Positions 39,906-52,256 of a stretch of 64,000 bases of DNA are shown here, one piece after another. Below the pieces are notes generated by a model, which worked only from the letters and a program-made list of their open reading frames with translations, did not search any database and was not told the origin of the DNA. Origin of the DNA: a virus. Where the stretch lies: IMG/VR virus record IMGVR_UViG_3300021964_000016. One strand, 5' to 3'. Each line of letters starts with the position of its first letter. Positions within the stretch are counted from its first letter, which is position 1. A program made the position numbers and the translations under genes.

Positions 39906-40060
39906 TATCGATTAACCTGCTTCTAACGATATTTATTTATATAAATTAGTTGGAGACAATCTTACTCAGAAGAATTATAATTTTTCGAATATTTTTGCGC
40001 CACTATCGATTACCCTGCTTCTAACGATATTTATTTATATATTTAGTTGGAGACAATCTT
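39897..40060. repeat. Imperfect ~66-bp direct repeat (39897-39963 and 39995-40060), each copy containing a TATAAATA late promoter
   Basis: TTGCGCCA[T/C]TATCGATTA[A/C]CCTGCTTCTAACGATATTTATTTATATA..TTAGTTGGAGACAATCTT occurs twice. Promoters at 39934-39941 and 40032-40039. Confidence 0.9.
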
Positions 40061-43000
40061 TTTCTTTTTTGATAAAATTGAGGAAACACCATAGGAACTA
40101 GTAGAATTAAACTCTATTGTACCAGTATCTTTCCTCGATTTAATTATAGTTGTTCTTGGTTTCTGTACCGTGAAACTTCCAGCAAGAGGAATAAGCGCAG
40201 AATTTCTGGTAATCGTTACAGTAGCAACCGTAGAAACATCCTGTGCTTCTAGTATGCCAACAGCATTTATACTCCTTCGGGCAACAGAGGTAACAGAAGA
40301 TTCTCCTGCCTCTAAAACAACAGAAGAAGAGATAACCCTTTCAGCAGCACAAACTACTTGAACATCGACGACTGAAAGTGAACCGGAAGCAACGAGAACA
40401 CGCTCAGAAACACCAGAGACAACTGAAGTTCCAGATATTACAGAATTTCCACCTTGGTCGTCAATTTCTCTTTCTGCATTACCAGCAACAGATTCTTCAC
40501 TCTGTATGTTACCAGAGGCGACCAGAACACGCTCGGCGATGCCAGATAAATTTGCTTCTTGTGACGTTAATGCGCCAGAAGAAACCAGAACACGTTCGGC
40601 AACACCAGAAACGGTTACATTTCCAGAGATAACAGAGTTGCCACCGTTATCGTCTATCTCACGTTCAGCGTTACCAGCAACAGACTCTTCGCTCTGGATG
40701 TTACCAGAAGCAACTAGGACACGTTCAGAAATACCAGAAACAGTTACATCACCAGAAACGACAGAGTTGCCTCCTTGGTCGTCAATTTCTCTTTCTGCAT
40801 TACCTGCTACCGACTCTTCACTCTGAATGTTGCCCGATCCAGTAATAATACGTTCAGATACACCTATTATTATCGAGTCAGAAGCAAATATCGAATTACC
40901 TTCGTTATCGTCTATCTCGCGTTCTGCATTACCTGCTACCGACTCTTCACTCTGAATGTTGCCCGATCCAGTAATAATACGTTCAGAAACACCTGTTATG
41001 AGAGAATCTGTGCTTACAAGACCGTTACCACCTTGGTCATCAACAACTCTCTCTGCATTACCTGCTACTGATTCTTCACTCTGAATGTTTCCAGAAGCAA
41101 CCAATACACGTTCGGCAATACCGGAAACTAAGGATGAATCAGAAACTAATGTTCCTCTACCAACTTTTGTGAGTTCTGCTTCGCCAGATACTACTGCCTC
41201 TTGAGACGCTACTGCGCCAGAAGCAACAATGGTGCGTTCAGCAACACCCAATATTGTTGAGACACCAACTGACAAGGCATTGCCACCTTGGTCATCAATT
41301 TCGCGTTCTGCATTACCTGCTACCGACTCTTCGCTTTGTATGTTTCCAGAAGCAACTAGGACACGTTCAGAGATACCAGAAACAACTTCTTCTTGAGATG
41401 CCAGCGAACCAGAGGCAACCAATATGCGTTCAGCAATACCAGAAACTGTTACGTCGCCCGAAGAAATAGAATTACCTTCATTATCGTCTATCTCACGTTC
41501 TGCATTACCTGCTACTGATTCTTCGCTCTGGATGTTACCAGAAGCAACTAGGACACGTTCAGAAATACCAGAAACAATAGAAGTTGTTACTGTTAGAGAA
41601 TTGCCACCTTGGTCATCTATCTCACGTTCTGCAATACCAGAAACCAGAGAAGCAGTAACTGTAAGGGAATTACCACCTTGGTCATCTATCTCACGTTCGG
41701 CATTACCTGCTACCGACTCTTCACTCTGAATGTTGCCCGATCCAGTAATAGTTCTTTCAGAGACACCTACTATTATCGAGTCAGAAGCAAATATCGAATT
41801 ACCTTCGTTATCGTCTATCTCGCGTTCTGCATTACCAGCGACAGATTCTTCGCTTTGGATGTTTCCAGAGGCGACAAGAACACGCTCGGAAATACCGAAG
41901 AAGACTTCTTCTTGGGATATTAATACACCAGAGGCGACCAATACCCGTTCAGCAACGCCAGAAACAGTTACATCACCAGAAACGACAGAGTTGCCTCCTT
42001 GGTCATCGATTTCTCTTTCTGCATTACCAGCAACAGATTCTTCACTCTGAATATTACCCGAAGCAACTAGGACACGTCCAGAGATACCAGAAACAAGGGA
42101 GTCAGTAACACCGAGAGAATTACCACCTTGGTCGTCTATCTCTCGTTCAGCATTACCAGAAACAAAAGAACTTGTTACTATTAGGGAATTGCCACCTTGG
42201 TCATCGATTTCTCTTTCTGCATTACCAGCGACAGATTCTTCACTCTGTATGTTACCAGAGGCAACGAGAACACGCTCAGAAACACCAGAGACAACTGAAG
42301 TTCCAGATACTAAGGAATTTCCACCTTGGTCATCAACAACTCTCTCTGCATTACCAGCAACAGATTCTTCGCCCTGTAAAGAACCTGAAGCAACCAACAC
42401 ACGTTCAGAAACACCAGAGACAACTGAAGTTCCAGATACTAAGGAATTGCCACCTTGATCATCAATTTCGCGTTCTGCATTACCTGCTACTGATTCTTCA
42501 CTCTGAAGAACACCTGAAGCAACCAACACACGCTCGGATACACCAGAAACAACTGCTTCTTGAGAAGTTAAAGTGCCAGAAGATACCAAAGACCTTTCAG
42601 CAATGGCGGAAACAGTGGAAGATCCGGAAACAAGAGAATTACCACCTTGATCGTCCACTTCACGTTCTGCATTACCTGCTACTGATTCTTCACCTTGTAG
42701 AGCACCAGAAGCAACCAACACACGTTCAGAGACGCCAGAGACAACTGAAGTTCCAGATACTAAGGAATTTCCACCTTGGTCGTCGATTTCTCTTTCTGCA
42801 TTACCAGCGACAGATTCTTCACTCTGTATGTTACCAGAAGCAACTAGCACACGCTCGGATACACCAGAGACAACTGCTTCTTGAGAAGTTAAAGTGCCAG
42901 AAGATACCAAAGACCTTTCAGCAATGGCGGAAATAGTGGAAGATCCGGAAACAAGAGCATTGCCGCCTTGGTCGTCCACAACTCTCTCAGCAACACCAGA

Positions 43001-44920
43001 TATGACAGAAACACCAGTTACTAGTGCGTTTCCACCTTGGTCATTGATTTCTCTTTCTGATGTGCCAGAGACAACCACTTCCTGAGTTGTTAAAGCACCA
43101 GAACTTGTGATTACACGTTCAGCGACACCAGATACAGTTTCTTCTTGAGATACTAATGTTCCGGAAGTAACCAGAACACGCTCTGCTATACCAGATACAG
43201 TTTCTTCTTGAGATACTAAAACCCCAGAACTTGTTACTATACGTTCAGAGACGCCAGAGATAACAGAAGATTGAGCAGACAAAGTTCCCGAAGGAACCAT
43301 AATTCTTTCACCAACGCCATCTACAATTACATTGTCGTCAGACTCAACGCCAGAAACAACAGAAACAATTGATCGTTCAGCGTCACCTGCGACTACGGCG
43401 ATACCAACTTCGTCAGCAGTTAGTTCTGCTTCTATTACAATCGTTTTTACAATAGATACAGATATATCTGAATTATCTGCTTTAGGTGAACCAGAAGAAT
43501 TTATGGTCCTTTCAGCAACTCCAGATACTATACTGTCTGAGGTTACTAACGAGACCGAAGAAGCGATAACACGCTCTGCTATACCAGATACGGTTACATC
43601 TTGCGATACTAAAACCCCAGAACTTGTTACTATACGTTCAGCGACACCAGATACAGTTTCTTCTTGAGATACTAATGCACCAGAACTTGTGATTACACGT
43701 TCAGCGACACCAGATACAGTTTCTTCTTGAGATACTAATGCACCAGAACTTGTGATTACACGTTCAGCGACACCAGATACAGTTTCTTCTTGAGATACTA
43801 ATGTTCCGGAAGCAACCAGAATACGCTCTGCTATACCAGATACGGTTACATTTTGAGACACTAATGTGCTAGTGCTGTTAATTACTCTTTCTGCAACACC
43901 AGATGCTATAGAATCTGTAACAACGAGAGAATTACCGCTTTGGTCGTCTATCTCTCGTTCACCAACGCCAGCAACGGATTCTTCACTCTGAAGAACACCT
44001 GAAGCAACCAACACACGTTCAGAGACACCAGAAACAACTGCTTCTTGAGAAGTTAAAGTGCCAGAAGATACCAAAGACCTTTCAGCAATGGCGGAAACAG
44101 TGGAAGATCCGGAAACAAGAGAATTGCCACCGTTATCGTCTATCTCGCGTTCTGCATTACCAGCGACAGATTCTTCACCTTGTAGGGCACCAGAAGCAAC
44201 CAATACACGTTCAGAAATACCATCTACTGTAGATGGCGAATCAACTAAAGTTCCAGTGCTATTAACGATCCGTTCGGCAACAGCAGATACAGTAGAAGAA
44301 CCAGAGGCAACAGAGTTTCCTCCTTGATCATCAATTTCTCTCTCACCAATTCCAGCAACAGATTCTTCACTTTGTATGTTACCAGAGGCAACGAGTACAC
44401 GTTCAGAAACGCCAGATACAGTTGAAGCACCTGTAGAGAGAGCATTACCACCTTGGTCGTCGATCTCTCGTTCTGCGTTACCAGCAACAGATTCTTCACC
44501 TTGAAGAGCACCAGAACCAGTAATAACACGTTCAGAAACGCCAGAAAGGTCGGAAGTTTGAGATACTAGAATACCAGTACTGACAATTATTCGTTCAGCA
44601 ACAGCAGATACAGAAGAGGAACCAGAGGCAACGTTGTTGCCGCCTTGGTCGTCGATCTCTCGTTCTGCATTACCAGCAATAGATTCTTCGCCTTGAAGAG
44701 CACCAGAAGCAACTAGGACACGTTCAGAGATACCAGAAACAGAAGAATTTTGAGACTGTAAAGAGCCAGAAGCAATTGATGCGACCAATAATGTAGCAAC
44801 ACCAGAAACGCTAGAAGATTGCGACTGTAGTTCTACGGTGAGGGTGTTTATGTCACCGATATATCCATCAGCAACATACCCGTCTACTACATATTTGTCT
44901 AGGGTGGCAGAGGAGGCCAA
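40043..44920 (-). CDS. Giant acidic S/V/G/E-rich tandem-repeat protein (1625 aa), probable virion appendage
   Basis: Dozens of 20-23 aa units of two types (VSGVSERVLVASGxxxSxE and SVAGNAEREIDDQGGNS). TTG start, with a CTAAATA late-type box at 44952-44958. Confidence 0.75.
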   Translation of the reverse strand: MASSATLDKYVVDGYVADGYIGDINTLTVELQSQSSSVSGVATLLVASIASGSLQSQNSSVSGISERVLVASGALQGEESIAGNAEREIDDQGGNNVASGSSSVSAVAERIIVSTGILVSQTSDLSGVSERVITGSGALQGEESVAGNAEREIDDQGGNALSTGASTVSGVSERVLVASGNIQSEESVAGIGEREIDDQGGNSVASGSSTVSAVAERIVNSTGTLVDSPSTVDGISERVLVASGALQGEESVAGNAEREIDDNGGNSLVSGSSTVSAIAERSLVSSGTLTSQEAVVSGVSERVLVASGVLQSEESVAGVGEREIDDQSGNSLVVTDSIASGVAERVINSTSTLVSQNVTVSGIAERILVASGTLVSQEETVSGVAERVITSSGALVSQEETVSGVAERVITSSGALVSQEETVSGVAERIVTSSGVLVSQDVTVSGIAERVIASSVSLVTSDSIVSGVAERTINSSGSPKADNSDISVSIVKTIVIEAELTADEVGIAVVAGDAERSIVSVVSGVESDDNVIVDGVGERIMVPSGTLSAQSSVISGVSERIVTSSGVLVSQEETVSGIAERVLVTSGTLVSQEETVSGVAERVITSSGALTTQEVVVSGTSEREINDQGGNALVTGVSVISGVAERVVDDQGGNALVSGSSTISAIAERSLVSSGTLTSQEAVVSGVSERVLVASGNIQSEESVAGNAEREIDDQGGNSLVSGTSVVSGVSERVLVASGALQGEESVAGNAEREVDDQGGNSLVSGSSTVSAIAERSLVSSGTLTSQEAVVSGVSERVLVASGVLQSEESVAGNAEREIDDQGGNSLVSGTSVVSGVSERVLVASGSLQGEESVAGNAERVVDDQGGNSLVSGTSVVSGVSERVLVASGNIQSEESVAGNAEREIDDQGGNSLIVTSSFVSGNAEREIDDQGGNSLGVTDSLVSGISGRVLVASGNIQSEESVAGNAEREIDDQGGNSVVSGDVTVSGVAERVLVASGVLISQEEVFFGISERVLVASGNIQSEESVAGNAEREIDDNEGNSIFASDSIIVGVSERTITGSGNIQSEESVAGNAEREIDDQGGNSLTVTASLVSGIAEREIDDQGGNSLTVTTSIVSGISERVLVASGNIQSEESVAGNAEREIDDNEGNSISSGDVTVSGIAERILVASGSLASQEEVVSGISERVLVASGNIQSEESVAGNAEREIDDQGGNALSVGVSTILGVAERTIVASGAVASQEAVVSGEAELTKVGRGTLVSDSSLVSGIAERVLVASGNIQSEESVAGNAERVVDDQGGNGLVSTDSLITGVSERIITGSGNIQSEESVAGNAEREIDDNEGNSIFASDSIIIGVSERIITGSGNIQSEESVAGNAEREIDDQGGNSVVSGDVTVSGISERVLVASGNIQSEESVAGNAEREIDDNGGNSVISGNVTVSGVAERVLVSSGALTSQEANLSGIAERVLVASGNIQSEESVAGNAEREIDDQGGNSVISGTSVVSGVSERVLVASGSLSVVDVQVVCAAERVISSSVVLEAGESSVTSVARRSINAVGILEAQDVSTVATVTITRNSALIPLAGSFTVQKPRTTIIKSRKDTGTIEFNSTSSYGVSSILSKKKKIVSN

Positions 44921-44954: not shown

Positions 44955-45626
44955 TTAGGGGGTTTCAATTTCCTCGATTAGCATTTCTGACATTTTTCTA
45001 CCAGTTTCATCACAATTAAACATGAATGCCATTGTACATCTCAAAGAATTAGTACGAGCGGCATGGTACAGTAACTTATCAGGTTCATCATATGTACCAT
45101 AATATCCATACTTACATTGCCAACCTTGCACGTCTGGTATTATAATGTGTTCTTTTGTCAATGGATCTATATGCTCCCATTGCCCGTCGCCAGTTTCGGA
45201 CCAAGTAAAGATAATATTGTATCCAGGAGCATTAGCATTATTATGCCAACCTATAAACCCACCAGGAGGATAAATGGCACTCAAAGCGCGATTTCTTGCT
45301 CCAGACCAAGAACAAAGAGCAGAAACAGAATTTTCAATCTCTTCTAATATTCGGATCTTTTCTGACGCGTCATTGTATTCAAACTTTCCTACTTGAATAT
45401 CAACTCCTCTTAGCATCTCAGGATACCCATCATGCTCTCTACCTTTCCAAACAATGTGATCAAGATAATCTTTGTTCAACCAATCTTCTGCGTTTTCTTC
45501 TCTAGGAATGTTCCTAAGTTTATCCAGATCTATAGACTGTACCGTATTTGATATTGAATGTAAGATACCTTGCAAAGTTTCATTAGCGATATTTACTGGG
45601 TTCATTCCAGGTTTTAAAAAACTCAT
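44955..45626 (-). CDS. Double-stranded beta-helix (2OG-Fe(II) oxygenase-like) protein
   Basis: YPPGGFIGWHNN (HxN rather than HxD) ... LYHAART ... RCTMAF. Confidence 0.55.
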   Translation of the reverse strand: MSFLKPGMNPVNIANETLQGILHSISNTVQSIDLDKLRNIPREENAEDWLNKDYLDHIVWKGREHDGYPEMLRGVDIQVGKFEYNDASEKIRILEEIENSVSALCSWSGARNRALSAIYPPGGFIGWHNNANAPGYNIIFTWSETGDGQWEHIDPLTKEHIIIPDVQGWQCKYGYYGTYDEPDKLLYHAARTNSLRCTMAFMFNCDETGRKMSEMLIEEIETP

Positions 45627-45627
45627 A

Positions 45628-46380
45628 TCAAATGATCTCTATGTCAGATATTTTTCTAGATGCTTTGGCGGATAAATGTATCAACGAAGTTCCCTCTGGC
45701 ATTGGGTGGGTGTGTCTGTTAAGGGAAGTCCAATAGTTCCACCTTAAATCTTCCTCAAAAATGCCAACCTTTAGTTCTTTGTACTTAGGTTCTTTCTCAA
45801 CCAACCACCAAAGAGTGAACTGATCCCAGCATGCTAGTTCTCTGGGGTAATTTTCGGTGTCCCAAGTAACCCCATCTTCTTTGGTCGGCCACCATTTATT
45901 AGCATGTTGTTTGACGTATAATTCGTACCAATCTTTCATAAACTCCATGATAATGTCAGTTTTTTTATACAAACAAACAGCACCGCAAAGAGTGAAAGTT
46001 CCTCCAGGAAATTCCGTGTCCATAAATATATGCCATCTATCTCTAGGCAACCCTGTGAACACCATATCATTATCACCAAGTTCTTCAAAAACATTGGCAA
46101 TATTTTCACTGATACATGTCATATCGGCGTCGATATAAAAAGTGTTATCATAGGGGGTTTGTGACATACCCCAGAGTTTTGCCCTGTAGTGGTTATCGCA
46201 AATAATTAAATGATCTGCTTCCTCTGCCCTAGAGTCTAAGAACCTCTCTTCGGTAACAAGACAAATGTTTGCTTCTGGGTAATAATCTTTTATATCAGAA
46301 ATAAGATTGGTTGCCCAAGAATAATATATTGGTTCGTTTGACGCAACGATCAGATATCCATTATTTTGATTCGGTTTCAT
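45628..46380 (-). CDS. GT-A fold glycosyltransferase (GT8-like)
   Basis: AKLWGMSQTPYDNTFYIDADM (DxD), CGAVCLY, WDQFTLW, RWNY, IHLS. Confidence 0.8.
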   Translation of the reverse strand: MKPNQNNGYLIVASNEPIYYSWATNLISDIKDYYPEANICLVTEERFLDSRAEEADHLIICDNHYRAKLWGMSQTPYDNTFYIDADMTCISENIANVFEELGDNDMVFTGLPRDRWHIFMDTEFPGGTFTLCGAVCLYKKTDIIMEFMKDWYELYVKQHANKWWPTKEDGVTWDTENYPRELACWDQFTLWWLVEKEPKYKELKVGIFEEDLRWNYWTSLNRHTHPMPEGTSLIHLSAKASRKISDIEII

Positions 46381-46840
46381 TCAAAGCAAATCCAATACCA
46401 AGTTCTTCCATCATAATAAGTTGAGCATATATGTTCAACTCTACTATATTTTTAGATCTGCGCATTTTACTTTTCAGATCTTTATTTTTGGTATTTTTTA
46501 TTTCGTCAATTTCGAGCATTTTTATTTTAGCATCGAAGAGTTTTTCAAGTTCTCTTGCTTGATCTTCTGCCTTTCTACGATGATGCTCTTCGTCTTTCTC
46601 TTGCGCTTTGCGCTCTCTTCGCTCTTTTGTGTTTTGATCGATCTTTTCTTCGCCGACCTGATCAAGAAGTTCTTCGTAATCTGGATTTGGGTCTCCATCT
46701 ACATCAAACTTCCTCACAGTCAAGACCTGAGAAATTTCTCTACCTTGCGTATCTGTGATCACGAGAATTGCTTCAGCTCGATCTTTACTCTCATCGTGCC
46801 AAAAAGCATTGTCTAACCATTTTCTACTGCTATATGCCAT
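46361..46840 (-). CDS. Hypothetical charged helical protein (possible fibre chaperone)
   Basis: Start likely ATG 46840 (SD GGAG). K/E-rich coiled coil. Confidence 0.7.
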   Translation of the reverse strand: MAYSSRKWLDNAFWHDESKDRAEAILVITDTQGREISQVLTVRKFDVDGDPNPDYEELLDQVGEEKIDQNTKERRERKAQEKDEEHHRRKAEDQARELEKLFDAKIKMLEIDEIKNTKNKDLKSKMRRSKNIVELNIYAQLIMMEELGIGFALNETESK

Positions 46841-46886
46841 AATATTCTCCAAGTGTTGACATAATTTATTTCGATTTTATATATAG

Positions 46887-49322
46887 TTAAGTTTCAGACA
46901 CCCTACAATATAGAGTGTATGTTTCTATCGTCTCAGTTGCAGCAACAAGGGTCTGTCCTGCAAACTGAGAAGAATAAGTATCTGAATAGTTTCTAGAACC
47001 AGAATATCCGATTGCCGAGATAAAAGTCCTTTGTCCAGTATATTGAGCAGAATAGTTACGGGAACCATCATATTGCCCAACTACTGATGCATAGTTTCTA
47101 GAACCACCGTATTGATCAACCACAGATGCATAGGTTCTAGAACCACTATAGGCACCAGAATACGTTCTTGAACCAGAATAAGCAGAAGAATAGTTTCTAG
47201 AACCAGCAAAATCTTGTGCAACTACTCTGGTTCCAGCATATTGGGCAGAATAGTTTCTAGAACCAGCAAAATCTTGTGCAACTACTCTGGTTCCAGCATA
47301 TTGGGCAGAGTAGTTTCTAGTTCCATCATACTGCCCTGTTACAGAAGCATAGTTTCTAGAACCAGAATAAGCAGCAGCATAGTTTCTAGAACCACCATAT
47401 TGACCAACTACTGATGCATAATTTCTAGAACCGTCAAAGTTCGCTGGGTTATTTCCAGTAAAGTTTCCTGGAGTCACCACAACCAGAGGACCCAAACGTT
47501 CGCCTGCGTAGGTACCAGCATAGTTGCGAGAACCAGCAAAATTATTAGGTCTGACGCCCTGAAAGGATCTTCCGCCCAAGAAATTTTCTACTCTAACCAC
47601 CGTTGCGTCGAAAGTGCCTGGTTCTGCGGGTCCCGCTACTGGCACGACTCTCGTACCAGCGAAGTTCGCAGGACCAGAAAAGTTTGCTGGGCCAACTCCG
47701 TCGTATTTTCTTACACCAGAAAAGTTATCTACGCTGACAGATGGGTTCTTGCCACCACTATCAAATGTCACTGAAAAGTTTGCGTTATATCCTCTGGTAA
47801 AAGATCTAGATCCAAGATAATTTGTAACACCAGCGAAATTTTGCGGAACTACTCTTGTTCCCGCGAAGTTCCTAACACCCGCATAGCTTCCTGTATAAGA
47901 AACGCTGTATTGGACGTTTGGTGATATAAAATTTTGTACAATTGTGCCTGCAAAGTTGGCAGTATAATTTCTGCTTCCGCCAAAGTTATTTGCATAATAG
48001 GTAAGTACGACATTTTCTCTTGTCCCAGCATACACCGCAGGACGGGTACCAGCATATGAAGCAGCATAGTTACGGGAACCACCGTAAACTCCAGCATAGT
48101 TTCTGGAACCACCATATTGTCCAACTACTGATGCATAGTTTCTTGAACCAGAATAAGCAGCAGGTCCGTAATTACGAGAACCAGCAAAATCTTGTGCAAC
48201 TGTTCTGTCTCCAGCATATTGAGCAGAATAGTTTCTAGAACCAGCGAAATCTTGTGCAACTGTTCTGTCTCCAGCATATTGAGCAGAATAGTTACGAGAA
48301 CCATCATATTGTCCAACTACTGATGCATAGTTTCTGGAACCGCCATATTGTCCAACTACTGACGAATAGGTTCTTGAACCAGAATAAGCACCAGAATAGG
48401 TTCTGGAACCAGAATAAGCAGAAGAGTAGTTTCTAGAACCAGCAAAATCTTGTTCAACTACTCTGCTTCCAGCATATGAAGCAGCATAGTTTCTTGAACC
48501 AGCGAAGTCCCCAGTATACTGTTGTTCTGATAAAGTGTTTCTTGTATCAAGTGCTGTACCGCGAGCGACCCAAGTACCAGTCTCTCCATTACCAGTAGGA
48601 GTTTGAGAGGAAGGTAGTAATAAATAATCGCCAACACCAGAATGTTTTCTGGCATACAAAACAGATTGCCTTAGAGAAATCTTTTGATCCGAGTCAGTAA
48701 ACTCTTGAACTGCCATCGGAGAAGTAGATTTAATTTCTATAATATTATATGTTGGTGAAGAAGGTTCAACCGCTGTTTCCCTTCTCCAAATACTATAGGT
48801 ATTTGCTGTTCCGTTTGTTAATGTATCAGAAAATACATCAGAGTCCCATTTTTTCCAGTCTCCACTAGGCGCAGAAGTTGCAACTCTGAAAGAAAGTCCT
48901 GGATATTCGTTAGAGTGTAGTTCCTCTGCTACTCTGGTTGACCATCGTAGGAAAGCAACATTGCTCATTTGGTGTAAGTTACCAGAACTGTCTGCTGCTA
49001 TTGGAAGGTCGTTATAAGGAATGGCAGCAGAGTCATCTAACTGATATATTGTAGTTGTGGTAGAACCAGTAGACAAAGCACTAGCAGGATGAGTCCCTAT
49101 TGCTTCGTTATAAAATGTATCAGTGAAACTACCAATGCTGGTAGAGGAAGTTGCATTAGCAGCAACAGAACCATTATATCGACTTGACTTATTGGCGAAA
49201 GATTCAACTACCTTTATACCTGCCTGATACCCAAACCATTCTTCAGAAGCAACAGAAATCCCCTGAAAGTCTCCAGAGTCGTTTTTCAGAGCCAATGGTA
49301 TGGATTTGAAAAAGGCAGACAT
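46887..49322 (-). CDS. YSGSRNY-repeat fibre-like protein, paralog A (811 aa)
   Basis: N-terminal domain shared with paralog B (TDTFYNEAxGTHP, TGTWVARGxALDTRNT), 10/13-aa [YF]xGSRNY repeats, C-terminal TYTLYCRVSET. Confidence 0.75.
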   Translation of the reverse strand: MSAFFKSIPLALKNDSGDFQGISVASEEWFGYQAGIKVVESFANKSSRYNGSVAANATSSTSIGSFTDTFYNEAIGTHPASALSTGSTTTTIYQLDDSAAIPYNDLPIAADSSGNLHQMSNVAFLRWSTRVAEELHSNEYPGLSFRVATSAPSGDWKKWDSDVFSDTLTNGTANTYSIWRRETAVEPSSPTYNIIEIKSTSPMAVQEFTDSDQKISLRQSVLYARKHSGVGDYLLLPSSQTPTGNGETGTWVARGTALDTRNTLSEQQYTGDFAGSRNYAASYAGSRVVEQDFAGSRNYSSAYSGSRTYSGAYSGSRTYSSVVGQYGGSRNYASVVGQYDGSRNYSAQYAGDRTVAQDFAGSRNYSAQYAGDRTVAQDFAGSRNYGPAAYSGSRNYASVVGQYGGSRNYAGVYGGSRNYAASYAGTRPAVYAGTRENVVLTYYANNFGGSRNYTANFAGTIVQNFISPNVQYSVSYTGSYAGVRNFAGTRVVPQNFAGVTNYLGSRSFTRGYNANFSVTFDSGGKNPSVSVDNFSGVRKYDGVGPANFSGPANFAGTRVVPVAGPAEPGTFDATVVRVENFLGGRSFQGVRPNNFAGSRNYAGTYAGERLGPLVVVTPGNFTGNNPANFDGSRNYASVVGQYGGSRNYAAAYSGSRNYASVTGQYDGTRNYSAQYAGTRVVAQDFAGSRNYSAQYAGTRVVAQDFAGSRNYSSAYSGSRTYSGAYSGSRTYASVVDQYGGSRNYASVVGQYDGSRNYSAQYTGQRTFISAIGYSGSRNYSDTYSSQFAGQTLVAATETIETYTLYCRVSET

Positions 49323-49324
49323 GA

Positions 49325-51568
49325 TTAAGTTTCAGAAACTCGGCAATATAGTGTATATGTATGTATAGTTTCTGCGGTAGAGGTTAAAGTTTCGCCCGCA
49401 AATTGACTAGAAAAAGAACCTGTATATTGCCCTGTGAATTGAGTGTTATATACTCCAGAATATTGTCCTGTAAAGTTTTTTATCCTTACGCCAGCAAAGT
49501 TTCCAGGCAGAGGTCCCAAGAATTCTCCTTCATAATTTCTGACCCCAGCATAAGAACCAGAATAGGTTCTGGAACCAGAATAAGCAGCAGAATAGTTTCT
49601 AGAACCAGAGAATTGTTGTACAGCAGGTCTTTGTCCGGAAAAGGTTTGGTCTTTTTGTCTTGAACCAGCATAATTCGCAGAATAGTTTCTTGCTCCACCG
49701 TATTGTCCAACTACTGATGCATAATTTCTAGAACCGCCATATTGCGCAGAATAAGTTCTTGAACCAGAATAATCAGCAGAAAAGTTTCTAGAACCAGCGA
49801 AAGTTCCAGGAATCGTGACCAGTTCCTGTCGAGAACCTGCAAACTGGAATGGCCCGCCAGTGAACTGTGCAGATCTTGTTCCTGTGTACTGTAATACTCG
49901 GACTCCAGCAAACTGTTGGGGGTAGGCAGGGTTTGTTCTTTGTCCTGAAAATACACCAGGAACTGGTTCTAGATCAAAAACATCAACCGTTCTTTGCCCT
50001 GCGTATTGTTTGGGAGCAACACCATCATATTTAACAATGGACGAGCTGTAGTTTACAACTCTTTCTGGTTCAACTGGTGGTCCAACTACATCAACACCAA
50101 CAAAGTAATCTGTATATCCTCTGGTAAAAGAATCTTCACCAGTAAAGTTCGTAGGTCCTACAGTCCTTGTCCCAGCAAAGGGGAATTGACGACTTCCTGC
50201 GAATTGTCCTGTGAACTGTATAGATCTAGTTCCTTCAAACTGAGCAGAAATAAATTGAGTATTGGTGACCTCCCTAGTTCCTGTAAACTGTCGATCACCA
50301 TTAAAGTTTCCTGGATTGGCCACCCAAGTCTGTCTACCACCAGTATATTGGAAGGTGTAATTTCTGGAACCGCCATACTGTCCAACTACTGATGCATAGT
50401 TTCTGGAACCGCCATATTGCGCAGCATAGTTTCTTGAACCACTGTAAGCACCAGAATAGTTTCTGGAACCAGAATATCCGATTGCCGAGATAAAAGTCCT
50501 TTGTCCAATAAATTGCGCAGGAATTTGCCTAACCCCTTCGTATTGAGAAGCATAGTTCCTTGATCCATCGTATTGTCCAACTACGGATGCGTAGTTTCTG
50601 GAACCGCCAAAAGAACTACTATAACCCCTCACTCCTGTGAAATTTACTGTCCTAACCCCAGAATAATCCGCAGAGAACGGGGCAACAGAAAATCCTGTAT
50701 ACTGCCCAGTAAAATTACCAGTATACTGCCCTGTGAATTGAGTTGTAAATGTGCCCAAATACTGTAGAATTTGTGTGGTGTTTCTAGTATCCAACGCAAC
50801 ACCACGAGCAACCCAAGTACCAGTGTATCCTTGATCTGCTGGAGTTCCGTCAGAATCAGAAAGTAAAAGGTAATCGCCAAGACCAGAATTTTGCTCAGCA
50901 TGACGCATAGCAAAATATGCAGAACGAATAGCATTGGTGTCAGACATTTCCTTAATGTGGTGTTGGTCAGAATCCTTTAACTGTAATGTATAAAAGGTTG
51001 GAGGAGAGAACGGACCAGTAGTAGATCTTTTTCTGTATAGATTATACGCTGTCGAACCGTTAGTTAAAGTGTCTTCAAACACCGAGGACTTATAAGTTTC
51101 ATAAGTTCCACCAGGACTACTCCCACTCAACCTAAAGCAACCTCCATCTTCGTTAGACAGAGCATTACTCAGTAGTCTCTTCCCCCAGCGTAAAAACGAG
51201 TCCGAATCCATCTCATAAATGTCGCCGCTAGAGTCAGCAGCAACTGTTCGATGCCATTCAGCAAAAGCATCTACAGAATCACCTTTATTTTGATAAAGAG
51301 TAGTTGTGGTAGAACCTGTAGAGAGAGAACTTCCAGGGTGAGTGCCAACTGCTTCGTTATAAAACGTATCAGTATAAGTGCCTATGGAGGAATTAGTTGC
51401 ATCTGTAGAAAGGGCACCATAATATGCAGAATCTCCAACCGGAAATTCTGTTGGTATTAATAGAGAACCTTGTTGCCCATAATAACTTTCTTGCGAAGAA
51501 GGGATGGCATTCATGGCACCACCGCCTAATGAAGAAAGTGTTAGCGGTATAGATTTTACTAACGACAT
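49325..51568 (-). CDS. YSGSRNY-repeat fibre-like protein, paralog B (747 aa)
   Basis: Same architecture as paralog A and an identical C-terminus TYTLYCRVSET. Confidence 0.75.
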   Translation of the reverse strand: MSLVKSIPLTLSSLGGGAMNAIPSSQESYYGQQGSLLIPTEFPVGDSAYYGALSTDATNSSIGTYTDTFYNEAVGTHPGSSLSTGSTTTTLYQNKGDSVDAFAEWHRTVAADSSGDIYEMDSDSFLRWGKRLLSNALSNEDGGCFRLSGSSPGGTYETYKSSVFEDTLTNGSTAYNLYRKRSTTGPFSPPTFYTLQLKDSDQHHIKEMSDTNAIRSAYFAMRHAEQNSGLGDYLLLSDSDGTPADQGYTGTWVARGVALDTRNTTQILQYLGTFTTQFTGQYTGNFTGQYTGFSVAPFSADYSGVRTVNFTGVRGYSSSFGGSRNYASVVGQYDGSRNYASQYEGVRQIPAQFIGQRTFISAIGYSGSRNYSGAYSGSRNYAAQYGGSRNYASVVGQYGGSRNYTFQYTGGRQTWVANPGNFNGDRQFTGTREVTNTQFISAQFEGTRSIQFTGQFAGSRQFPFAGTRTVGPTNFTGEDSFTRGYTDYFVGVDVVGPPVEPERVVNYSSSIVKYDGVAPKQYAGQRTVDVFDLEPVPGVFSGQRTNPAYPQQFAGVRVLQYTGTRSAQFTGGPFQFAGSRQELVTIPGTFAGSRNFSADYSGSRTYSAQYGGSRNYASVVGQYGGARNYSANYAGSRQKDQTFSGQRPAVQQFSGSRNYSAAYSGSRTYSGSYAGVRNYEGEFLGPLPGNFAGVRIKNFTGQYSGVYNTQFTGQYTGSFSSQFAGETLTSTAETIHTYTLYCRVSET

Positions 51569-51581
51569 TATGAAACCTTAA

Positions 51582-52256
51582 TTATGGGTTTAGCAACACA
51601 GAACTTCTATTGTATACGTTTGGTATCCTAGCATTTACCTCGTCAATAGCACCATGAACAGTATTGGCAGAAATCTCGCTGGCGGTTATGCTTCCTGTGC
51701 CACTAGATGGAAGGGTGATGCTACCACCGACTGTCACATTACCACTATCAAATGTCATCGCAGTAACAATGCCCGATTTAATTAAAACGTTGCCTGAGTT
51801 GTTAGTCAGAGAACCCCATTCCACAGCGTTGTCTTTAAGGACAATACTGCCTCCATTAGCATCAAGATTTACATTACCTTCAGCATTCAGTATAATTTCA
51901 TTAGCAATGACCTCAAAGTCATCTGAACCTGCAGTAATATTTTTTGCAGATGCATCGAATACTGCTTCAATCTCGTTGATTGCGCCAACAACCGTCTTTG
52001 CTTGTGTGGTTAGATCAGCACCAGAACCACCACCAGATCCGTGTAAGTCTGAATCGAGTTCGTTTAATGCATCTACCAGAGTTCCAGCAGTAAAATCGTC
52101 AAGACCACGAAGAGTTTTATTGCCTCCTGGACCTATTGCTGAATCGAGATAACTTAGATCTGAATCGACATTATCGCCATAGTAATTCAGGTCTTGAATT
52201 AACTGCTGGAAAGTGTCAGTAGTTTGAAAAAGTGGGTGTGCGCTATCAAATGCCAT
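51582..52256 (-). CDS. Short fibre/whisker-like structural protein
   Basis: TLVDALNEL, TVVGAINEI and TVHGAIDEV repeats. C-terminal PNVYNRSSVLLN resembles the end of ORF 31225-32034. Confidence 0.65.
   Translation of the reverse strand: MAFDSAHPLFQTTDTFQQLIQDLNYYGDNVDSDLSYLDSAIGPGGNKTLRGLDDFTAGTLVDALNELDSDLHGSGGGSGADLTTQAKTVVGAINEIEAVFDASAKNITAGSDDFEVIANEIILNAEGNVNLDANGGSIVLKDNAVEWGSLTNNSGNVLIKSGIVTAMTFDSGNVTVGGSITLPSSGTGSITASEISANTVHGAIDEVNARIPNVYNRSSVLLNP

Follow-up and report, generated by a model that had tools for sequence, protein, structure and literature searches.

Tandem Tyr/Gly-repeat paralogues of a divergent T4-like phage as probable out-and-back fibre proteins with a variable tip

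The two proteins described here, paralog A and paralog B, are encoded by neighboring genes on the minus strand of a 64,000-nucleotide (nt) stretch of viral DNA (IMG/VR virus record IMGVR_UViG_3300021964_000016; the whole stretch will be referred to as the window). Paralog A (P0001) is an open reading frame of 811 amino acids (aa) at 46887..49322, and paralog B (P0002) is one of 747 aa at 49325..51568. They are probably tandem paralogues of a fibre-like family, in which the chain makes an out-and-back excursion from a base domain and carries a variable tip. In this arrangement, a β-rich base domain of ~270 aa would be completed by the last ~24 residues of the chain, inserted antiparallel beside the strand from which the excursion exits. 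The repeats, rich in Tyr, Gly and Ser (and in part Arg), would form the excursion out and back, with halves of equal length whose matching blocks are equidistant from the base. A short variable segment, 25 aa between the motifs FTRGY and KYDGV, would be the distal tip and the likely site of receptor contact. The length of the excursion would change by gain or loss of units in both arms, and blocks would be copied between the arms by recombination, necessarily in direct orientation, such that an asymmetric block (SSLL, see below) meets its copy head to tail. We infer that the two arms touch each other as an extended stalk and that the protein, as an oligomer of some order, is attached to the virion and binds a receptor.

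The base domain of A (aa 1–270) is encoded at 48513..49322 and is conserved in all relatives. Searches of A and B against Pfam and PHROGs find no family for this domain or for the remainder of the chains; a HisZ-like match is below the cut-off and covers 15 residues only. The repeats are divided into units by cutting the protein after each R-x-[YF], where S denotes units of 10 or 11 aa, L units of 13 aa, and D units of 20 aa. This parse of A gives an N-terminal part of 279 residues, the units D S S L L D D S L S (the third S having 11 aa), an irregular stretch at residues 420–635, the units L S L D D S S L L, a D-like unit (10+12 aa), and a final 32 aa. The outbound arm (aa 271–504, 47811..48512) thus begins with a 13-mer, continues with the first string, and ends with units of 34, 33, and 22 aa. 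The presumed tip (aa 505–545, 47688..47810) lies at the midpoint of the excursion. The return arm (aa 546–787, 46962..47687) has units of 47, 14, and 34 aa ahead of the second string and the D-like unit. The C-terminal tail (aa 788–811, ...ETYTLYCRVSET), together with the stop codon, is at 46887..46961, and its motif is conserved throughout the family.

Paralog B has the same organization. Its base domain (aa 1–271, 50756..51568) is aligned with that of A at 45% identity, and its C-terminal tail (aa 724–747, 49325..49399 with the stop codon) at 75% identity. The outbound arm (aa 272–477, 50138..50755) and the return arm (aa 520–723, 49400..50011) are separated by the presumed tip (aa 478–519, 50012..50137), which is recognized by FTRGY and KYDGV and by the comparison with A. 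FTGQYTG tracts come first in the outbound arm and last in the return arm, that is, at both ends of the repeat region, as the original prediction had described. The arms of A and B are 45–54% identical, and the 25 residues of the tip interior only 20%. The midpoint varies in other clades as well, where it is a bare turn or a domain of 100–135 aa or far more, and in short members it carries a Gly-rich, turn-like motif (YYGGFVGG). As judged from the sequences, the variable midpoint fits a presumed distal site of host contact.

A model of paralog A was produced with AlphaFold2 from an alignment of 94 sequences. The predicted local distance difference test score (pLDDT) is ~90 for residues 1–270 and 92–98 for residues 785–811, and these two confident regions contain the long strands 250–270 and 786–809. 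The association of the two ends was examined by entering residues 1–280 and 775–811 of A as two chains in a complex prediction. The tail docks on the base domain with a score of 0.92 in three runs, compared to 0.48, 0.02, and 0.00 for the controls. The contact agreement among the runs is at least 90%, and the pLDDT of the partner is at least 74. In a calibration, the same mark was attained by 58 of 80 solved complexes and by 2 of 110 mismatched pairs. Residues 233–236 are predicted to contact residues 805–803, and residues 251–254 to contact residues 807–804. In the prediction, the tail is antiparallel to, and located between, the base strands 230–238 and 247–267, which places residue ~267 opposite residue ~791.

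The fold matches of the base domain of A are β-prism domains (the MABP domain 3tow and the MACPF C-terminal domains 2qp2 and 8b6v), with weak Z scores of 5.5–6.4, which by the program's own note (Z below 8) are within the range of chance arrangements, and rms distances of 3.7–3.9 Å over 117–123 residues. No sequence relation to these domains was found, and a functional inference from them is unjustified. The matches cover residues 49–810, and as a result they include the C-terminal tail as part of the base domain. Viral proteins of 328–351 aa in the ESM Atlas match the base domain plus tail, with TM scores of 0.58–0.70, and full-length family members with excursions of only ~90 aa exist. The docking and these short proteins together suggest that the repeat region is an insertion into a hairpin of the base domain, as far as predictions rather than measurements can indicate. 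A Foldseek search with the whole A model against the Protein Data Bank (PDB) and BFVD gave no match at E ≤ 0.001, which is probably due to the low confidence of most of the model. The AlphaFold2 model of a short relative (P0090), built with a shallow alignment, is poor (mean pLDDT 47.6, and ~30 in the repeat region).

The two arms are closely matched in length. In paralog A, the repeat-bearing excursion of ~520 aa is divided into arms of 249 aa (between DTR and FTRGY) and 250 aa (between KYDG and GQTL), which bears out the proposed equality of the arms (~260 aa), and the arms of B measure 221 aa (outbound) and 212 aa (return) from motif to motif. The same balance is observed in 40 relatives that have a single Gly-rich, turn-like motif of the form [YF][YF][GSA]G[YF].., with arms of, for example, 35/37 (P0135, a protein of 362 aa), 39/41, 61/64, 65/68, 89/91, ~95/97, 113/120, and 118/119 aa. 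The arm lengths in this set are correlated with r of 0.95–0.96 and a slope of 1.0 over a 3.4-fold range.

The order of the units is also related between the arms. Mirrored order is better than direct order in 51 proteins and worse in 8 of the 80 compared, and with a cleaner segmentation the numbers are 50 and 8 of 72. Relative to arm-shuffled controls, 13 proteins show mirrored order at p ≤ 0.05, and no protein does so for direct order. One relative reads D D D 26 26 26 10 | 90 | 18 10 26 26 26 D D D, and another reads D D D 38 22 27 | 101 | 29 22 38 D D D, whose two 38-aa units, one in each arm, are almost the same in sequence. The mirrored pattern recurs in clades with quite different units. 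For A alone, a test for like facing like is not significant (p ~0.2), as is expected if S faces L there.

Similar blocks are located at similar heights above the base. Among 94 proteins, 71% have their best local alignment between the two halves within 10 aa of equal base distance, compared to 47% in the null and to 63% in the highest of 2000 trials. For 90 further cluster representatives the share is 58%, with a null of 33% and a maximum of 49%. Two other measures are uninformative. A window-by-window test of best-match height is too noisy, as block copies in direct orientation spread the differences around zero. The 'stalk extent' per arm, from the spacing of [YFW]-x-G, gives r of 0.39 and 13% of proteins within 12 aa (10.5% by chance), with a motif that is unsuited to some clades. 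Overall, the out-and-back topology with equal arms is well supported by prediction and comparison: the tail is modeled with confidence and docks on the base domain, the arm lengths are balanced, and the order of the units is predominantly mirrored. The β-hairpin fibre that the original prediction expected the arms to form is a reasonable inference.

Several observations weigh against the out-and-back arrangement. The repeats of A (residues 274–783) have pLDDT of ~30 in the AlphaFold2 model, so that the confident prediction is limited to the base domain and the tail, and the fold of the repeat region is not predicted. Both docking results come from structure predictors, which are blind to whether the tail docks within its own chain or onto another. 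The proteins of the family are related by phylogeny, and protein counts overstate the independent support. In some relatives the arms are unbalanced by about one unit or more (P0003, 249/230 aa; P0004, 172/250; P0118, 97/76; P0109, 99/121), which may be collapses in the assembly. Finally, the halves of the 3347-aa homologue in phage C48C1 are not mirror-like beyond the base.

One alternative to the out-and-back arrangement is docking between chains. In an antiparallel assembly of this kind, extended chains would lie side by side, with the C-terminal tail of each completing the base domain of another, and each outbound half would run along the return half of the partner chain. The product would be a dimeric or higher rod with base domains at both ends. 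The mirror rule, the equal-height blocks, and the docking of tail to base are all equally expected from this assembly, and the split-chain test itself used two separate chains. It also accommodates the unlike halves of the C48C1 protein more easily. On the other hand, the most variable segment, or an inserted domain of 100–135 aa, is found exactly midway, a position that is easier to reconcile with an exposed tip than with the center of a rod, and the midpoint of the short members is the turn-like YYGGFVGG. Moreover, the fibre would carry attachment domains at its two ends, which is an unusual design. On balance this assembly is unlikely, and the within-chain excursion is the preferred reading.

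The repeats of A were proposed to follow a pairing rule upon antiparallel folding, with outbound units SSLLDDSLS, return units LSLDDSSLL, every L facing an S, and D facing D. The R-x-[YF] parse reproduces both strings exactly. It also adds two units beyond them, the first D (280–299) and the last D-like unit (758–779), which fit the rule as well, and with these included all 10 positions obey it. The probability of this fit is 1 in 4200 if the order of the return arm is random (10!/(3!3!4!)), a figure that is limited by the non-independence of the arms, which are linked by a direct DNA repeat. Paralog B was said to follow the same rule. All three of its L units do face S, but there are two S-S pairs, and a 20+12 pair is opposite a 30-aa unit, so that the fit is loose.

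An explanation for such a rule would be a pairing code, in which S (10 or 11 aa) and L (13 aa) are structural partners and selection keeps an L opposite every S. The complete fit of A and the L units of B are in its favor, as is the pair 410–419 and 636–648, the sole S-L pair of A outside any shared block. The code is not supported, however. L units are found only in the A/B clade, and the other clades pair like with like. Within A, the SSLL block of residues 300–345 recurs at residues 712–757 with 44 of 46 residues identical. The centers of the two blocks are 55.5 and 56.5 aa from the base pairing point, that is, at equal height. Both blocks are inside a direct DNA repeat (family D4) of 248 nt and 88% identity, with one copy at 47026..47273 in the return arm (aa 684–766) and its partner at 48262..48509 in the outbound arm (aa 272–354). 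As a block copied in direct orientation to the same height of an antiparallel arm places S opposite L automatically, the head-to-tail meeting is sufficient to produce the pattern. The outer S L / S L pair of A shows the same head-to-tail behavior, and so do two other block types in the C48C1 homologue, which are in direct order in both arms over the first ~80 aa from the base. A selected code is thus quite improbable, and the S-L pattern is probably a by-product of equal-height block copies. The rule suggested for the family by these comparisons of sequence is that an identical block is present at matching height in both arms.

Copying may extend beyond one protein. A 72-nt DNA repeat (family D8) joins the two ends of B. 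A stretch of 76 nt in the return arm of A (46975–47050) is 91% identical to one in the outbound arm of B (50445–50520) and encodes QRTFISAIGYSGSRNY, which suggests an exchange of modules between the paralogues.

The low pLDDT throughout the repeats would also be expected of a flexible, low-complexity loop rich in Tyr, Arg, and Gly, sticky or disordered, whose halves have no fixed pairing. The composition of the repeats (G 14%, S 13%, Y 11%, R 8%, N 8%) resembles that of prion-like low-complexity regions. Disorder, however, needs neither conserved unit lengths and mirrored order nor arms that are matched over a 3.4-fold range, and this explanation is very unlikely. The least probable alternative is a conventional trimeric fibre, parallel from N to C and with a knob at its center, in which the docking of tail to base would be an artefact. 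Most phage fibres are parallel trimers, and predictors can wrongly set chains side by side. However, two different predictors agree on the docking, with controls at or below 0.48, every full-length member from 331 to 3347 aa retains the conserved tail motif along with the base domain, and a parallel trimer gives no reason for the mirrored order.

The closest known parallel to the out-and-back excursion is the D10–D11 needle of T4 gp37, in which the chain also extends to a receptor-binding tip before it turns back. In gp37, residues 811–881 of the outgoing segment and 1010–1026 of the returning segment together make up the collar domain D10, and seven iron ions, coordinated by histidines of the trimer, hold the needle together (PMC6957217). 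By comparison with the predicted models, D10 would correspond to the base domain plus C-terminal tail of the present family. Like A and B, gp37 is encoded in the baseplate/fibre module of a T4-like myovirus. The iron sites of gp37, in contrast, have no counterpart here. There is no His in the repeat regions of A and B, and no HxH motif among 37,797 repeat residues of 94 family members, in agreement with the absence of such sites that had been claimed. Moreover, the family has no sequence or profile similarity to gp37 or to any solved fibre chain, and its arms, built from Tyr/Gly repeats, are much longer than those of gp37 and differ among members by matched numbers of units. A collagen-like phage fibre was considered separately and is excluded, as there are no runs of Gly-X-Y triplets and the units of 10, 11, 13, 20 aa and longer have the pattern Y-x-G-x-R-x-Y.

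The family is defined by an N-terminal base domain, Tyr/Gly repeats, and a tail of the form ...TYTLY.R or ...LW.RTA, and both A and B qualify. Clustering at 50% identity gives 879 clusters for E ≤ 0.001, of which 397 reach E ≤ 1e-30; one search returned 175 relatives. The lengths range from 331 to 2503 aa among the best 150 clusters. Searches of A and B against the sequences of the PDB (phmmer and the family profile, E up to 1) found nothing relevant. The family is thus large yet unannotated, and its source phages, probably T4-like myoviruses, are marine or estuarine, with no cultured member. Arginine was proposed to be part of a Tyr/Arg/Gly fibre, but the common theme of the family is Tyr/Gly. 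The repeats of the short relatives P0135–P0140 (362–424 aa) have the form Y-[ST]-G-x-[YF]-T-G and are without arginine, which makes arginine a feature of some clades and not of the family.

The sole relative in the phage genome collection is a hypothetical protein of 3347 aa in phage C48C1 (OQ984149, Kyanoviridae; L001:11989-22032). It has the base domain at its N terminus (29% identity) and TETYTLYVRVA at the very end, and its gene is followed by the same three genes as in the window. It differs from A and B in its excursion of 3063 aa, which is interrupted by five or six globular inserts, most of them located past the midpoint. About 1500 aa of this protein consist of R-rich repeats of the TYSR.R.S type and repeats of the NY.G type. 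The literature searched for C48C1 and for DUF4815 contained no relevant report.

The genes of the window form the structural module of a divergent T4-like myovirus, in which PHROG matches identify the terminase, portal, major head protein, and sheath, as well as baseplate wedge proteins similar to gp6 and gp8. The closest phage genome record is also C48C1, with only ~77% DNA identity across part of the capsid gene. Paralogs A and B are flanked by the gp6/gp8-like wedge genes, a giant DUF4815 protein, and other fibre-like genes, a context that favors the fibre reading. Upstream in gene order are a gp8-like gene, the DUF4815 protein of 1896 aa, a virion protein of 80 aa, and a protein of 224 aa; downstream are three small genes and then a repeat protein of 1625 aa. 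The gene order around the fibre gene is maintained in relatives (L002–L006) and in C48C1.

The three downstream genes (44955..46852, minus strand) encode proteins of 163 aa (coiled-coil-like), 250 aa, and 223 aa, and they travel with the fibre gene. The same trio follows it in distant relatives and in C48C1, and the proteins of the window are 33–36% identical to the trio of one relative (L002). Pfam searches with the 250-aa and 223-aa proteins are negative up to an E of 10, while the 163-aa protein has four weak Pfam matches only (E ≥ 0.09), all far below the cut-off. These three proteins may be assembly or modification factors for the fibre.

The 224-aa protein directly upstream of B (51582-52256, minus strand) has three motifs of the form ..V.A(I/L)(N/D)E(L/I/V).. 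(TLVDALNELD, TVVGAINEIE, and TVHGAIDEVN), of a kind that occurs in short phage fibres, and it has no family match. In relatives, its place is occupied by a gene of ~160 aa. The 1625-aa protein (40043-44920, minus strand) is acidic and consists almost entirely of two alternating repeat units (SGVSERV.. and AGNAEREIDDQGGN..), and a Pfam search with it was negative.

The DNA of A is present in contigs of at least 20 metagenome studies from estuarine, marine, salt-marsh, and freshwater sites. The Logan contigs (assembled from k-mers) of four public metagenome runs all break within both arms of A, at about 47025–47280 and 48142–48392. The center of A (47280–48142) and the part that encodes the base domain are assembled cleanly. 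The contig joints around the repeats of A have short sides or come from other copies, and the public runs do not settle the copy number. As the breaks are located in both arms, the copy numbers of units in short-read assemblies, perhaps including that of the window, are uncertain.

It is conceivable, if somewhat short of probable, that these proteins represent a new fibre architecture. Such a fibre would have a self-paired, metal-free stalk of Tyr/Gly repeats with a local two-fold axis and the same block at the same height in both arms. Its length would change only by matched changes of units and by exchange between the arms, and its distal end would range from a bare turn up to a head that exceeds 1500 aa.

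If the out-and-back arrangement is correct, it would be a second way to build a receptor-binding fibre that runs out and back, one free of metal sites, and it would be present in several hundred clusters of widespread marine and estuarine phages. The matched-arm rule would be a structural constraint that can be read from the sequence alone, and it would account for the co-evolving repeats of the two halves. The number of units would set the length of the fibre, which suggests a natural scaffold. The midpoint of the excursion would be the site of host recognition, and it would offer a handle on the diversity of the tips and on the host range of these uncultured phages.

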